Of a stretch of 64,000 bases of DNA, positions 19,520-54,237 are shown piece by piece. The stretch is from Escherichia coli. GTDB lineage: Bacteria; Pseudomonadota; Gammaproteobacteria; Enterobacterales; Enterobacteriaceae. The translations under genes were made by a program, and so were the position numbers. Under the pieces are notes generated by a model that saw nothing but the letters and a program-made list of their open reading frames with translations, made no database searches and was not told where the DNA came from. How positions within the stretch are numbered: the first letter of the stretch is position 1; the number at the start of each line of letters is the position of its first letter. The stretch lies in the NCBI RefSeq assembly GCF_965641715.1, contig NZ_OZ282453.1, one strand, 5' to 3'.

Positions 19520-21163
19520 ATGGAACTTCTTGTACTTGTCTGGCGGCAGTATCGCTGGCCATTTATCAGTGTGATGGCGCTAAGCCTCGCCAGTGCGGCT
19601 TTAGGCATTGGCTTAATTGCTTTTATCAATCAGCGCCTTATCGAAACGGCGGATACCAGTCTGCTGGTGTTGCCGGAGTTTCTGGGATTATTGCTGCTGT
19701 TGATGGCAGTCACTCTCGGATCGCAACTGGCGCTCACCACTTTGGGGCATCACTTCGTTTACCGACTGCGTAGTGAATTTATCAAGCGGATTCTGGATAC
19801 CCACGTCGAGCGCATTGAACAACTCGGTAGCGCCTCGTTGCTGGCGGGATTAACCAGCGATGTGCGCAATATCACCATTGCTTTTGTGCGTCTGCCGGAA
19901 CTGGTGCAGGGGATCATTCTCACTATCGGTTCAGCGGCGTATCTGTGGATGCTGTCGGGCAAAATGTTGCTGGTAACGGCTATCTGGATGGCGATCACCA
20001 TCTGGGGCGGTTTTGTGCTGGTGGCGCGGGTGTACAAACATATGGCGACCCTGCGTGAAACCGAAGACAAGCTGTACACGGATTTTCAAACCGTACTTGA
20101 AGGGCGCAAAGAGCTGACTCTGAACCGGGAACGCGCCGAGTATGTGTTTAACAACCTCTACATCCCCGATGCGCAAGAGTATCGCCATCATATTATCCGC
20201 GCAGACACCTTCCATCTTAGTGCCGTGAACTGGTCAAACATCATGATGCTGGGCGCAATCGGCCTGGTGTTCTGGATGGCGAACAGTCTCGGTTGGGCTG
20301 ATACCAACGTTGCCGCGACCTATTCGTTGACGCTGTTATTCCTGCGTACGCCGCTGCTTTCGGCGGTTGGTGCGTTGCCGACGCTACTGACTGCGCAGGT
20401 GGCGTTTAACAAGTTAAACAAATTCGCGCTCGCACCTTTCAAAGCGGAGTTTCCGCGCCCGCAGGCGTTTCCCAACTGGCAAACGCTGGAGCTGCGTAAT
20501 GTTACGTTTGCTTATCAGGATAACGCGTTTTCCGTTGGGCCGATTAACCTCACCATTAAACGTGGCGAACTGCTGTTTCTGATAGGTGGCAATGGTAGCG
20601 GCAAATCGACGCTGGCGATGTTGCTGACAGGTTTATATCAGCCGCAAAGTGGCGAAATTTTGCTGGATGGTAACCCCATCAGCGGCGAAAAACCGGAAGA
20701 TTATCGCAAACTGTTTTCGGCAGTGTTTACCGATGTCTGGTTGTTTGATCAACTGCTGGGGCCGGAGGGGAAACCTGCTAACCCACAACTGGTTGAGAAG
20801 TGGCTGGCGCAGCTGAAAATGGGTCATAAGCTTGAGTTAAGTAACGGGCGTATTGTTAACCTGAAGTTATCGAAAGGGCAGAAAAAACGCGTGGCGCTGT
20901 TGCTGGCTTTGGCAGAAGAACGCGATATTATTCTGCTGGATGAATGGGCGGCGGATCAGGATCCACATTTCCGCCGTGAGTTTTATCAGGTGCTGCTGCC
21001 GTTGATGCAGGAAATGGGTAAAACAATTTTCGCTATCAGCCATGATGATCACTACTTCATCCACGCCGACCGTCTGCTGGAGATGCGTAATGGGCAACTT
21101 AGCGAACTGACCGGCGAAGAGCGCGACGCTGCTTCGCGTGATGCCGTTGCCCGGACGGCATAA
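19520..21163 (+). CDS. yojI: ABC exporter YojI (fused permease/ATPase; microcin J25 efflux family)
   Basis: 547-aa ORF; N-terminal TM domain, C-terminal Walker A (GGNGSGKST), ABC signature and Walker B ([12 protein letters not shown]). Confidence 0.92.
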
Positions 21164-21256
21164 TATTTTGACGCTGACCTGGCGGGCTACTGTCGCCAGG
21201 TCAATATTCTAAAAATCCCTGCATTTCTAATAACCCTATAATTAATCAACGAAATT

Positions 21257-21296
21257 ATAATGTTTATAAAATTAGAAGATAATTTATAAACATTAT
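21257..21296. promoter_or_regulatory. Perfect 14-bp inverted repeat in the mqo upstream region
   Basis: ATAATGTTTATAAA (21257-21270) / TTTATAAACATTAT (21283-21296) with a 12-nt spacer, about 85 bp upstream of the mqo start; AT-rich. Confidence 0.4.
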
Positions 21297-21368
21297 TTAA
21301 ATGTTGTTACTTAAGTGTTACCGTTGATGCCGCGCAAATCTCACCTGCAATAAAGCGACTAAAAGTAA

Positions 21369-23027
<1,659 letters not shown>

Positions 23028-52416: not shown

Positions 52417-54237
52417 CTACTCTCCCTGTTGTCTGGCTGACGGCAGTTTGGCCGCTTTATTAACATCATACCACCAGGTATCGATACCCAGACTGTAAAC
52501 AGGGCGCACAGCGGGTTGGGAGAATTTATCCCACCAGGCGAGACGGTCTTCCGCCATGTACCACATTGGCAGCATGTAATAATTCCACGTTAATACGCGA
52601 TCCAGTGCTCGCCCTAACGGCAGTAATTTTTCTTTATTTCCCTGCGCGGCAATAATTTGGTTGATCAGCGAGTCGATAACCGGGCTTTGCACGCCGGGGG
52701 CATTATAAGTGGAATTGATATATTCCGATGACCAGGAAATCTGTAAATCGGAACTGGGCCACGGCATCGCCCGCCATAGGCGCGGCATCATGTCATAATC
52801 GCGACTGCGCATGCGGTTGGTGATTTGCGAGTTATCCACCTTGCGAATGTCCATGTTGATACCCAGCCGTTGCAGGCTGTGCTGGAACGGCAATACCCAC
52901 TGACTATTGCTGCTTGCGGGAAGCAATAATTCAAAGCTGAGCGGCTGACCCGTTGTGGCATTAACGCGTTGCTGACCCTTCAGCACCCAGCCCGCTTCGT
53001 TGAGAAGTTTGTCGGCTTTTAACAGGTTGTCACGATCGTAGCCATCGCCTTTGGATACCGGCGGCTGGTAGATTTGTGTGAAGACTTCTGGCGGTAGATC
53101 TTTTTTCATTGGTGCCAGAAGCACCAGCTCCGCGGCGTCGGGGTAATTTCTGGCCGCGTATTCGGTATTCTGAAAATAACTGTTCGTGCGACTCCAGGCA
53201 TTGTAAAACAACGCCTTGTTCATCCATTCAAAGTCAAAGGCGAGGGTGATCGCTTCGCGGACCCGGCGATCGCTGAATACCGGACGTTGGATATTAAACG
53301 CCAGCCAGCGCGTATCCTGGGCTGATTCGTTCTTTTGCTCATCTTTGATGATGTATTTTTTATCGAAATTTTTACCGGTATAACGCGTGGCCCAGTTTTT
53401 AGCGTCGTTTTCCATACGCAAATCAAAAGCACCTGCTTTAAACGCTTCAAAGGCGACATTATCATCGAGGTAATAATCGTAGCGAATGGTGTCGAAATTC
53501 CAGCGTCCACGGTTCACCGGTAAGTTTGCTGCCCAGTAATCTTTCACGCGGGAATAGACAATATTTTGCCCCATTTTCCAGGACGTAATTCGGTACGGAC
53601 CACTGGCAAGCGGAGGCGTGGCGAGCGGATCGCTAAGTTTGTGATCCTTCCAGTACTTTTCTGGAAATACCGGCAGCGAAAACAGACTCAACATATCTTC
53701 TTTGCCGGGTTTAGCTAACTCAATGCGCACGGTTAACGGCGCAATGGCTTTGACGGTGGTGCCTTTGTAGACCAGACGAAATTGCGGCACGCCTTCGGTC
53801 ATAAATTTTTGAAAAGTAAACTCTACATCGCGGGCAGTAATGGGCGAACCATCATGAAAACGGGCGCGCGGATTAATAGCGACCTCCACCCAGGAATAAT
53901 CGTCAGCATAGCGTGCGCTTTCAGCAATCAGCGGGTAATAACTGCCTGGTTCGTCATCGGAAGTCGTAAATAGCGTGTCGTACAGCTGCTCGGTGCGTGC
54001 GCCCGGGTTGCCGCGCAGTGCATAGCGGTTGAAATTATCGAAGGTACCGAGGGCTGACAACGTTATCTGCCCACCTTTTGGCGCGGCGGGGTTCACATAA
54101 TCAAAATGGTTGAAATTAAACGCGTACCGGGGTTCGCCCAGCACGGCAAAGGCATAGCTTTCCTTGATAGCCTGCGCCTGCGCACCAAAGGTGAACAGAG
54201 CGATAAACAGCAGCAGTATGCGCACAATCATCTGCAA
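52417..54237 (-). CDS. yejA: Periplasmic substrate-binding protein YejA of the YejABEF importer
   Basis: 606-aa ORF with signal peptide; true start may be the ATG two codons in (MIVRILLL...). Confidence 0.9.
   Translation of the reverse strand: MQMIVRILLLFIALFTFGAQAQAIKESYAFAVLGEPRYAFNFNHFDYVNPAAPKGGQITLSALGTFDNFNRYALRGNPGARTEQLYDTLFTTSDDEPGSYYPLIAESARYADDYSWVEVAINPRARFHDGSPITARDVEFTFQKFMTEGVPQFRLVYKGTTVKAIAPLTVRIELAKPGKEDMLSLFSLPVFPEKYWKDHKLSDPLATPPLASGPYRITSWKMGQNIVYSRVKDYWAANLPVNRGRWNFDTIRYDYYLDDNVAFEAFKAGAFDLRMENDAKNWATRYTGKNFDKKYIIKDEQKNESAQDTRWLAFNIQRPVFSDRRVREAITLAFDFEWMNKALFYNAWSRTNSYFQNTEYAARNYPDAAELVLLAPMKKDLPPEVFTQIYQPPVSKGDGYDRDNLLKADKLLNEAGWVLKGQQRVNATTGQPLSFELLLPASSNSQWVLPFQHSLQRLGINMDIRKVDNSQITNRMRSRDYDMMPRLWRAMPWPSSDLQISWSSEYINSTYNAPGVQSPVIDSLINQIIAAQGNKEKLLPLGRALDRVLTWNYYMLPMWYMAEDRLAWWDKFSQPAVRPVYSLGIDTWWYDVNKAAKLPSARQQGE

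Follow-up and report, generated by a model that had tools for sequence, protein, structure and literature searches.

Few E. coli promoters are repressed by ArcA as strongly as that of mqo, and the original paper on mqo-lacZ and ArcA is reportedly that of van der Rest and colleagues from 2000. The consensus for UP elements is said to come from Estrem and colleagues in 1998. Quasi-palindromes are known to be corrected to full symmetry by template switching, and the resulting hotspots are reportedly described by the Ripley model and by work of the Lovett laboratory with lacZ and thyA reporters in E. coli. At mqo itself, Park et al. 2013 (PMC3798270) described an ArcA ChIP peak and a 20.5-bit ArcA box (ttgttacttaagtgttac), 31.8-fold derepression of the gene in an arcA mutant, and a lower sigma-70 occupancy under anaerobic conditions. 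The mqo entry in Kim et al. 2012 (PMC3415461) gives one transcription start site (TSS), at K-12 position 2304825 with a 49-nt leader, and a promoter sequence that ends in ...GTGTTACCGTTGATGCCG; this start comes from one high-throughput data set and 10 reads. By genomic SELEX, the RpoD holoenzyme of RNA polymerase alone binds the K-12 yojI-mqo spacer, which also carries an H-NS site placed at spacer resolution only (Shimada et al. 2014, PMC3946193). In all, 987 genomic-SELEX H-NS sites are reported by Shimada and Ishihama. K-12 is thus the strain in which the TSS and the ArcA site were determined, and in which dependence of expression on ArcA and binding of RNA polymerase and H-NS to the spacer were demonstrated.

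The DNA analyzed here, a stretch of 64 kb that we call the window, carries the perfect dyad ATAATGTTTATAAA-ATTAGAAGATAA-TTTATAAACATTAT at 21257-21296 upstream of mqo. Its 14-nt arms are 100% complementary and flank a 12-nt spacer, just as the preliminary description had it, and 85 nt separate its end from the mqo ATG (21381), in agreement with the earlier figure of about 85 bp. No longer perfect inverted repeat exists in the window among those with spacers of up to 30 nt. On balance, we favor reading this dyad not as a discrete operator but as the AT-rich DNA that makes up the upstream half of the characterized, ArcA-repressed sigma-70 promoter of mqo, from -75 to -36. Only a few Escherichia lineages have the single base change that makes the symmetry perfect, and the most probable account is therefore one of ordinary promoter DNA rather than a dedicated operator. 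The features of the region are collected in Table 1.

Table 1. Features of the yojI-mqo region in window coordinates; negative positions are relative to the mapped mqo TSS.
Feature	Position	Strand	Remarks
yojI CDS (microcin J25 efflux ABC transporter)	19520..21163	+	upstream gene, same strand as mqo
G+C-rich hairpin TGACCTGGCG-N9-CGCCAGGTCA, 3' of yojI	21175..21203	+	upstream limit of the AT-rich tract
Dyad left arm ATAATGTTTATAAA	21257..21270		-75 to -62
ArcA half-site-like heptamer ATGTTTA in left arm	21260..21266	+	half-site PWM 7.0 bits
Dyad spacer ATTAGAAGATAA, 12 nt	21271..21282		
UP-element-like stretch	21273..21294	+	-59 to -38; covers dyad spacer and right arm
Dyad right arm TTTATAAACATTAT	21283..21296		-49 to -36; conserved part of the dyad
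ArcA-P operator, three direct repeats, TTATTTAAATGTTGTTACTTAAGTGTTACCGT	21293..21324	+	-39 to -8; Park et al. 2013, Tables S4 and S6
Putative -35 hexamer TTTAAA	21296..21301	+	17 bp 5' of the -10; fits the K-12 TSS
Core 18-bp ArcA box TTGTTACTTAAGTGTTAC	21304..21321	+	20.5 bits with a PWM built without the mqo box; 8 bp downstream of the dyad
Putative extended -10 TGtTACCGT	21316..21324	+	hexamer 21319-21324 (-13 to -8), 7 nt 5' of the TSS
mqo TSS (G)	21332	+	K-12 2304825 (mqo entry of Kim et al. 2012), placed by sequence identity
mqo 5' leader	21332..21380	+	identical in five Escherichia species
mqo CDS (malate:quinone oxidoreductase, 548 aa)	21381..23027	+	

The gene yojI is followed by two G+C-rich hairpins (21141-21161 and 21175-21203) and then by the AT-rich tract that contains the dyad. 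The hairpin at 21175-21203 shows compensatory changes between Escherichia species. The tract (21205-21320) is about 116 bp long and 81% A+T, and the whole 217-bp yojI-mqo spacer is 67% A+T; the leader described earlier as very AT-rich over 200 bp is strongly AT-rich only over those 116 bp. The window falls outside E. coli proper: its yojI-mqo spacer has a best E. coli match of 96.8%, and the upstream region is identical to that of Escherichia sp. E1V33, with an Mqo protein that is 100% identical and an mqo DNA sequence that differs by 1.5%. A generic promoter and terminator scan was uninformative: apart from the hairpin at the stop codon of yojI, it returned only one promoter-like match, on the minus strand, and the number of sites equaled the shuffle expectation. 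We also considered an upstream promoter that would transcribe the dyad through the perfect TATAAT at 21237-21242, and rejected it for want of a usable -35 element and a mapped TSS.

The promoter-proximal sequence of the window is identical to that of K-12, and the K-12 data therefore transfer to it directly. With the TSS at G21332, as the entry of Kim et al. implies, the dyad spans -75 to -36. The core elements in Table 1 agree with this start, and the same arrangement, TGNTA(C/A)CGT with TTTAAA, TTTAAT, TTTGAT or TTTATT exactly 17 bp 5' of it, was found at all 38 mqo loci compared (38 species and seven genera: Escherichia, Citrobacter, Enterobacter, Lelliottia, Leclercia, Pseudenterobacter and one further enterobacterium). 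This conservation of the promoter architecture supports the published TSS. No Klebsiella mqo start was found in the part of the Kim et al. supplements that was searched. The purely sequence-based mqo promoter proposed by Shimada et al. 2014 (TTGATG-16-TGCAAT, window 21324-21351) disagrees with the mapped TSS and would place the dyad at about -100 to -60.

Promoters of the Enterobacter group lack 11 bp (CTTAAGTGTTA, one ArcA repeat) that are present in Escherichia and Citrobacter, and their -35 TTTAAA is consequently homologous to the TATAAA within the right arm of the dyad, part of the T(A/T)TAAAC of that arm. The right-arm TATAAA could thus be a displaced ancestral -35 element, lying one helical turn (11 bp) further upstream in Escherichia and Citrobacter because of the extra ArcA direct repeat there. 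Counted from the mapped sigma-70 start, the DNA at about -59 to -38, where an UP element would be expected, is AT-rich at this locus; the dyad spacer and right arm together occupy -61 to -36. The UP consensus (NNAAAWWTWTTTTNNAAAANNN) matches 21273-21294 at 11 of 15 positions, and the K-12 sequence at 12 of 15 (P = 0.038 and 0.010 against composition-matched 22-mers); the support from this match is modest. From position and composition we infer that the dyad spacer and right arm, at -59 to -38, may serve as an UP-like tract contacted by the alpha-CTDs of RNA polymerase. Such a tract would aid aerobic recruitment of polymerase to a promoter with the weak core TTTAAA-17-TGtTACCGT. Being AT-rich, the tract is also the likely place within the spacer for H-NS to bind. 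The left arm would then be faster-evolving AT-rich DNA, and the perfect symmetry would be incidental: E. coli has a 13/14 quasi-palindrome here, which one C-to-A change at 21266 presumably completed. Both the UP-element function and the placement of H-NS on the dyad tract in particular are putative.

For anaerobic repression, the target of ArcA-P would be the three-repeat operator next to the dyad (-39 to -8) and not the dyad itself. The published operator sequence is identical in the window, and its coordinates (21293-21324) show that the dyad abuts it with an overlap of 4 nt. An ArcA PWM that we rebuilt without the mqo box, using 114 published ones, had a training range of 9.5-21.5 bits. The best 18-mer within the dyad scored 8.5 bits, below the weakest training site, and the hallmark of ArcA operators (at least two same-strand TGTTA-type repeats 11 bp apart with a box-like score) is absent from the dyad and present at 21304-21321. 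The ArcA ChIP-chip and ChIP-seq peaks at mqo are centered near the core box, at a resolution too coarse to place occupancy as far out as -75.

One alternative is that the two arms are low-affinity auxiliary ArcA-P half-sites, such that cooperative extension or looping from the three-repeat operator deepens anaerobic repression. With a half-site PWM, the ATGTTTA in each arm (plus strand on the left, minus strand on the right) reaches 7.0 bits, close to the 7.2 bits of the accepted repeat DR3. Four half-sites of this quality fall within the 116-bp tract, whereas each strand of the window has only about one per 590 nt. From the start of the plus-strand copy to DR2 downstream the distance is 44 bp (4 x 11), which puts the two in helical phase; the prior for this is about 1 in 11. 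Park et al. 2013 (PMC3798270) reported ArcA footprints of 30-60 bp and more, with distal repeats and one opposite-strand site, but their systematic search for extra repeats returned only three at mqo, ending at -39. In the Citrobacter freundii complex, a 17- to 18-bit ArcA box lies on the minus strand over the equivalent of the left arm, although it may serve the divergent transporter-like upstream gene of those genomes. The dyad's 18-mer score also counts against auxiliary sites, as do the poor scores of repeats between 21271 and 21292, and, since ArcA binds head-to-tail direct repeats, the inverted arrangement is not normal ArcA architecture. We consider such auxiliary sites unlikely.

We compared the dyad with consensus strings, rather than matrices of a curated library, for 12 regulators, H-NS, IHF, Fis, Fur, CRP, FNR, Nac, Lrp, PhoP, NarL, TyrR and ArgR, and none of them beat composition-matched shuffles. 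PhoP came closest (10/12, P = 0.08), on the minus strand over the right arm and the -35, in a match that is not conserved. The high-affinity H-NS motif matched 8/10 in the dyad tract, which was not above shuffles. The preliminary description had recognized no specific regulator consensus; this stands for the 12 sequences compared, and what it missed was the adjacent 20.5-bit ArcA box and the UP- and -35-proximal position of the dyad. Its suggestion of a nucleoid-protein site gains some ground from the H-NS SELEX mark on the K-12 spacer, at the resolution of that spacer and with a motif match at chance. Our survey of the literature on mqo regulators (SELEX and ChIP-exo) found only ArcA, the H-NS SELEX mark, the RpoD SELEX peak and the small RNA FnrS. 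The 5' end of FnrS has short complementarity to the mqo leader. Full-length FnrS, evaluated against the leader with RNAduplex, gave an energy equal to that of shuffles and was uninformative. Other half-site copies in a promoter-like setting were not found in the 64-kb window; a further half-site match at 52456-52469 (two mismatches) is unrelated, lying in G+C-rich, apparently coding sequence.

The symmetry itself exceeds the expectation from base composition in both the window (14/14) and E. coli (13/14). In dinucleotide-preserving shuffles, a perfect arm of at least 14 nt arose in 0/5000 shuffles of the 217-bp yojI-mqo spacer and in 0/5000 of the 116-bp AT-rich tract, and with P = 4e-4 for the 86-bp core. 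When mismatches were allowed in 14-nt arms, 0/1500 shuffles reached 14/14; the P value was 0.007 for 13/14 and 0.56 for 11/14. These results place the dyad above local chance, and the earlier claim that it is improbable by chance was accordingly confirmed at the scale of the tract. Genome-wide the matter is different: AT-rich promoter tracts number in the hundreds, so that a 13/14 dyad should turn up somewhere, and perfect ones, by extrapolation, at roughly 0.1-0.4 per genome.

Conservation of the dyad was evaluated as arm-to-arm complementarity at aligned columns, using the 80 loci kept from a scan; E. fergusonii, E. marmotae and E. ruysiae are not among them, and E. coli P276M (a single 86%-identity match) was left out as an apparently poor-quality assembly with mqo annotated as a pseudogene. 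All 14 pairs are complementary in the window, in E1V33 (L041) and in L007, which represents another cryptic Escherichia lineage, a genome mislabeled as E. coli whose mqo is about 7% diverged from K-12. The count is 13/14 in E. coli and E. whittamii, where C replaces A at 21266, 11/14 in E. albertii, 7-11 of 14 in Citrobacter, and 2-5 of 14 in Enterobacter, Lelliottia and Leclercia. Values of 11/14 or less, as in E. albertii, Citrobacter and the Enterobacter group, are at or below the shuffle expectation. Across genera, the right arm is conserved (T.TAAACA(A/T)TAT) and the left arm is not, Enterobacter being one example; orthologous promoters therefore keep neither both half-sites nor the symmetry, and retain the right arm alone. 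The dyad spacer varies among Escherichia lineages at 21274 and 21278, and the GATAAT that closes it in the window is TATAAT at the same place in E. coli and Citrobacter.

The dyad differs from K-12 at 2/40 positions and from E. albertii at 4/40, and the 84 nt that follow it differ at 0/84 and 2/84, respectively. Third codon positions of mqo differ by 14.6% from K-12 and by 25% from E. albertii. Given that the dyad is less diverged than synonymous sites within Escherichia, some constraint acts on it, and this constraint is much less than that on the core promoter and leader. At column 21266, the window has A, E. coli, E. whittamii and E. albertii have C, and Citrobacter and Enterobacter have T. 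Of the 5,421 complete genomes of E. coli, about 4,459 have the exact 121-nt K-12 promoter sequence with C at this column. The same sequence with A occurs in one of the 5,421, the otherwise ordinary E. coli strain PSS-13; genomes with A plus a second change were not counted, so the number with A is at least one. In mqo distance, the window falls with E. whittamii (C at 21266) and not with L007 (A).

We weighed three further explanations against these data. A dyad of this kind could be the candidate operator of a homodimeric or tetrameric regulator, with half-sites about 26 bp apart center to center, acting as a class I-type activator site or as an upstream repressor site for mqo. This would account for the statistically unusual symmetry, for the constraint seen within Escherichia and for a dyad center at about -55.5, in the zone of upstream activators, and the recurrence of the dyad-perfecting C-to-A change in separate lineages would fit it as well. 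However, the symmetry is at chance in E. albertii, Citrobacter and Enterobacter although the promoter is kept, nearly all E. coli carry the imperfect version, the motif comparison and the search for half-site copies in the window returned no match, and the literature found names only ArcA, plus H-NS binding and FnrS, for mqo. The operator option of the preliminary description does not survive the conservation test, with its symmetry falling to chance and its left arm unconserved, and we regard a dimeric regulator as quite unlikely. If the dyad instead had no function of its own, it would be a neutral AT-rich quasi-palindrome perfected by template-switch mutation. One substitution perfects the repeat, A for C at 21266, and the new base equals that templated by the other arm; A is found in the window lineage, the L007 lineage and PSS-13, which are non-sister by mqo distances, and the base in the outgroup, E. 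albertii, is C. Which of the two bases came first is nonetheless ambiguous, with T at this column in Citrobacter and Enterobacter, and recombination between lineages could also explain the pattern. The region is, moreover, less diverged than synonymous sites, and the meaningful promoter position of the right arm makes a complete lack of function unlikely for that arm. Taken as an account of the whole dyad, neutrality seems improbable to us.

A C-to-A change that arose independently in the window, L007 and PSS-13 would point either to a template-switch hotspot within a promoter or to selection for symmetry creating a lineage-specific mqo operator for a dimeric regulator, and we rate this possibility as decidedly doubtful; if true, such recurrent perfection or lineage-specific operator would make a small case study in promoter evolution. 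It is highly improbable that the repeat works through structure, whether as a cruciform extruded from supercoiled DNA or as a hairpin in read-through RNA. In favor of structure, the folding energies are -9.4 kcal/mol (z = -4.5) for the 54-nt segment as single-stranded DNA and -7.4 (z = -3.1) for the K-12 version, and the yojI hairpins have no good T-tract, which makes some read-through conceivable. Against this, the dyad lies upstream of the one mqo TSS in the Kim et al. entry, an all-A-T stem with a 12-nt loop is unfavorable for cruciform extrusion, and there are no compensatory changes, the E. coli and E. albertii substitutions instead breaking pairs. A permissive Rfam scan of 21050-21500 for known RNA elements gave only a subthreshold ctRNA_pGA1 hit (23 versus a gathering threshold of 45 bits) inside the mqo coding start.

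Our preferred reading, an AT-rich upstream promoter half with incidental symmetry, has points against it as well. The perfect dyad is locally unusual, and so is the imperfect one of E. coli (13/14; P = 0.007 per tract), and the dyad is more conserved within Escherichia than synonymous sites are. The match to the UP consensus is modest, H-NS binding is resolved only to the spacer, and the mqo TSS, as given in the Kim et al. entry, has 10 reads and differs from the promoter proposed by Shimada et al. The C-to-A change in at least two non-sister Escherichia lineages and one E. coli strain could reflect selection for symmetry rather than mutational bias. Collectively, the observation is real and its biology is ordinary, the element lying within a promoter for which earlier papers give both TSS and ArcA operator. 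What is useful in the result is negative, namely that a striking symmetry here should not be taken as a new operator, and otherwise the dyad has little importance beyond correct annotation. What our analysis adds is an mqo promoter architecture conserved over seven enterobacterial genera, the UP-like assignment, and the gain or loss of an 11-bp ArcA repeat between genera.

The dyad shares individual traits with four known systems. Like the H-NS-bound AT-rich tracts of proU and bgl, its tract is rich in A+T (81-91%), has many TpA steps and belongs to a spacer that is on the K-12 SELEX list, but mqo is a core, well-expressed metabolic gene and not a silenced, horizontally acquired one, and its H-NS motif match is 8/10. 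As at quasi-palindrome template-switch hotspots, the 13/14 mqo dyad has been perfected by a single templated base, apparently more than once, although the recurrence at mqo could equally be due to selection or recombination. The mqo promoter is itself one of the sigma-70 promoters covered by ArcA-P multi-direct-repeat operators, along with those of icdA, acs, lpdA, cyoA and sthA (Park et al. 2013). The dyad arms hold TGTTTA heptamers that resemble ArcA half-sites; in contrast to these operators, the half-sites are inverted, no 18-mer reaches the score of an accepted box, and the dyad falls outside the published operator save for 4 nt. Compared with UP elements of the rrnB P1 type, the mqo match is moderate, the role of the alpha-CTD is putative and the dyad extends to -75, past a canonical UP element. 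Nevertheless, the dyad likewise provides an AT-rich block at -59 to -38, just 5' of the -35, with 11-12 of 15 consensus positions matched, and the weak core hexamers of mqo would make the help of an UP element useful.

The preliminary description took the window to be E. coli DNA, and this attribution had to be abandoned, with the stretch reassigned to a cryptic Escherichia lineage like Escherichia sp. E1V33. Its spacer upstream of mqo is at most 96.8% identical to that of any E. coli among 5,421 complete genomes, and its mqo differs from that of K-12 by 5.5%. In one complete E. coli genome, P276M, many small indels and substitutions are scattered through the promoter of mqo and the start of the gene itself, which is annotated as a pseudogene; this damage looks like a fault of assembly quality rather than biology.

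The mqo leader contains an octamer, TCACCTGC, that is the exact complement of nucleotides 1 to 8 of the sRNA FnrS. The identity of the FnrS query sequence was checked against Rfam (RF01796, 134.8 bits). By a rough estimate, an 8-mer match would arise by chance with a probability of about 0.07. The motif is kept in all three main genera compared, Escherichia, Citrobacter, and Enterobacter, and is not kept in the mqo leaders of Pseudenterobacter; with the variants TCACCTGT in some Enterobacter and TCATCTGC in Leclercia, G-U pairs with FnrS would remain. All 49 nt of the leader are free of differences among five Escherichia species, and one paper lists mqo among FnrS targets, predicted or demonstrated (PMC10993149). 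The octamer may be the FnrS pairing site. The same nucleotides are overlapped by the TGCAAT of a promoter that Shimada et al. (2014) proposed for mqo, which lies downstream of the transcription start site of Kim et al. (2012), placing the two assignments in conflict; an additional, weaker promoter is conceivable.

The ArcA-binding part of the promoter differs in length between genera. In a comparison of the window with the aligned mqo loci L015 and L021-L036, Escherichia and Citrobacter have 11 bp more (CTTAAGTGTTA) than Enterobacter, Lelliottia, and Leclercia. These 11 bp make up a single ArcA direct repeat and equal one turn of the helix, so that a different TTTAAA would act as the -35 element in the two groups. 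ArcA-box scores are weak in most Enterobacter-group promoters (about 9.4 bits, with about 12 for L028 and L039), the exception being L029 at 21.4 bits.

Coordinates of features in and around the mqo upstream region
Feature	Sequence	Position	Orientation or location	Score
Hairpin	10-bp G+C-rich stem	window 21175-21203	3' of yojI	
IS element, E. coli PEC240	at CTAA	window ~21227	~105 bp upstream of mqo TSS	
TATAAT hexamers	TATAAT	window 21237-21242, 21256-21261; K-12 equivalent of 21277-21282	mqo strand	
Region with the 11-bp difference	CTTAAGTGTTA	window 21304-21324	mqo promoter	
Promoter proposed by Shimada et al.	TTGATG-16-TGCAAT	window 21324-21351	upstream of mqo	
FnrS-complementary motif	TCACCTGC	window 21341-21348	mqo leader, 21332-21380	
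Second strong ArcA box	ATGTTATTAATACGTTGA	L016 2356-2373 (Citrobacter werkmanii)	opposite to mqo	17-18 bits
Conserved block, ~45 bp	GC(A/T)TCCGTGCG..GA(A/T).A.CAAAG(C/T)GCAGCATAGTA	L016 2262-2300 and aligned Citrobacter/Enterobacter loci	upstream of mqo	

The opposite-strand ArcA box of C. werkmanii also occurs in L014, L018-L020, L037, and L040, and it covers the equivalent of the left arm of the dyad. In genomes of this type, the upstream neighbor of mqo is not yojI but a divergent 414-aa open reading frame resembling a membrane transporter, which makes the spacer there a bidirectional control region. The conserved block, highly conserved in Citrobacter, Enterobacter, Lelliottia, and Leclercia, can be read on its opposite strand as a small frame that starts with ATG (in C. 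werkmanii, MLRFAIHRTDA...) and may represent a leader peptide or RNA of the divergent gene.

Within Escherichia, base changes on the two sides of the yojI-distal hairpin stem compensate each other from species to species, from GACC/GGTC to AACC/GGTT in L007 (a genome mislabeled E. coli) and from CCTGGCG/CGCCAGG to CCTGGTG/CACCAGG in E. albertii, with one G-U pair in K-12. These changes indicate an RNA stem under selection, though no T-tract follows it. The IS5-family (ISKpn26-like) element of PEC240 replaces the yojI-proximal portion of the spacer and leaves the dyad and promoter undamaged; it sits where spacer homology between Escherichia and Citrobacter starts. In the AT-rich tract, a stretch of about 45 bp holds several perfect TATAAT hexamers. 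The window has two of them and E. coli has three, and no copy comes with a usable -35 element or a mapped start site. Such clusters of promoter-like hexamers are typical of H-NS-bound DNA.
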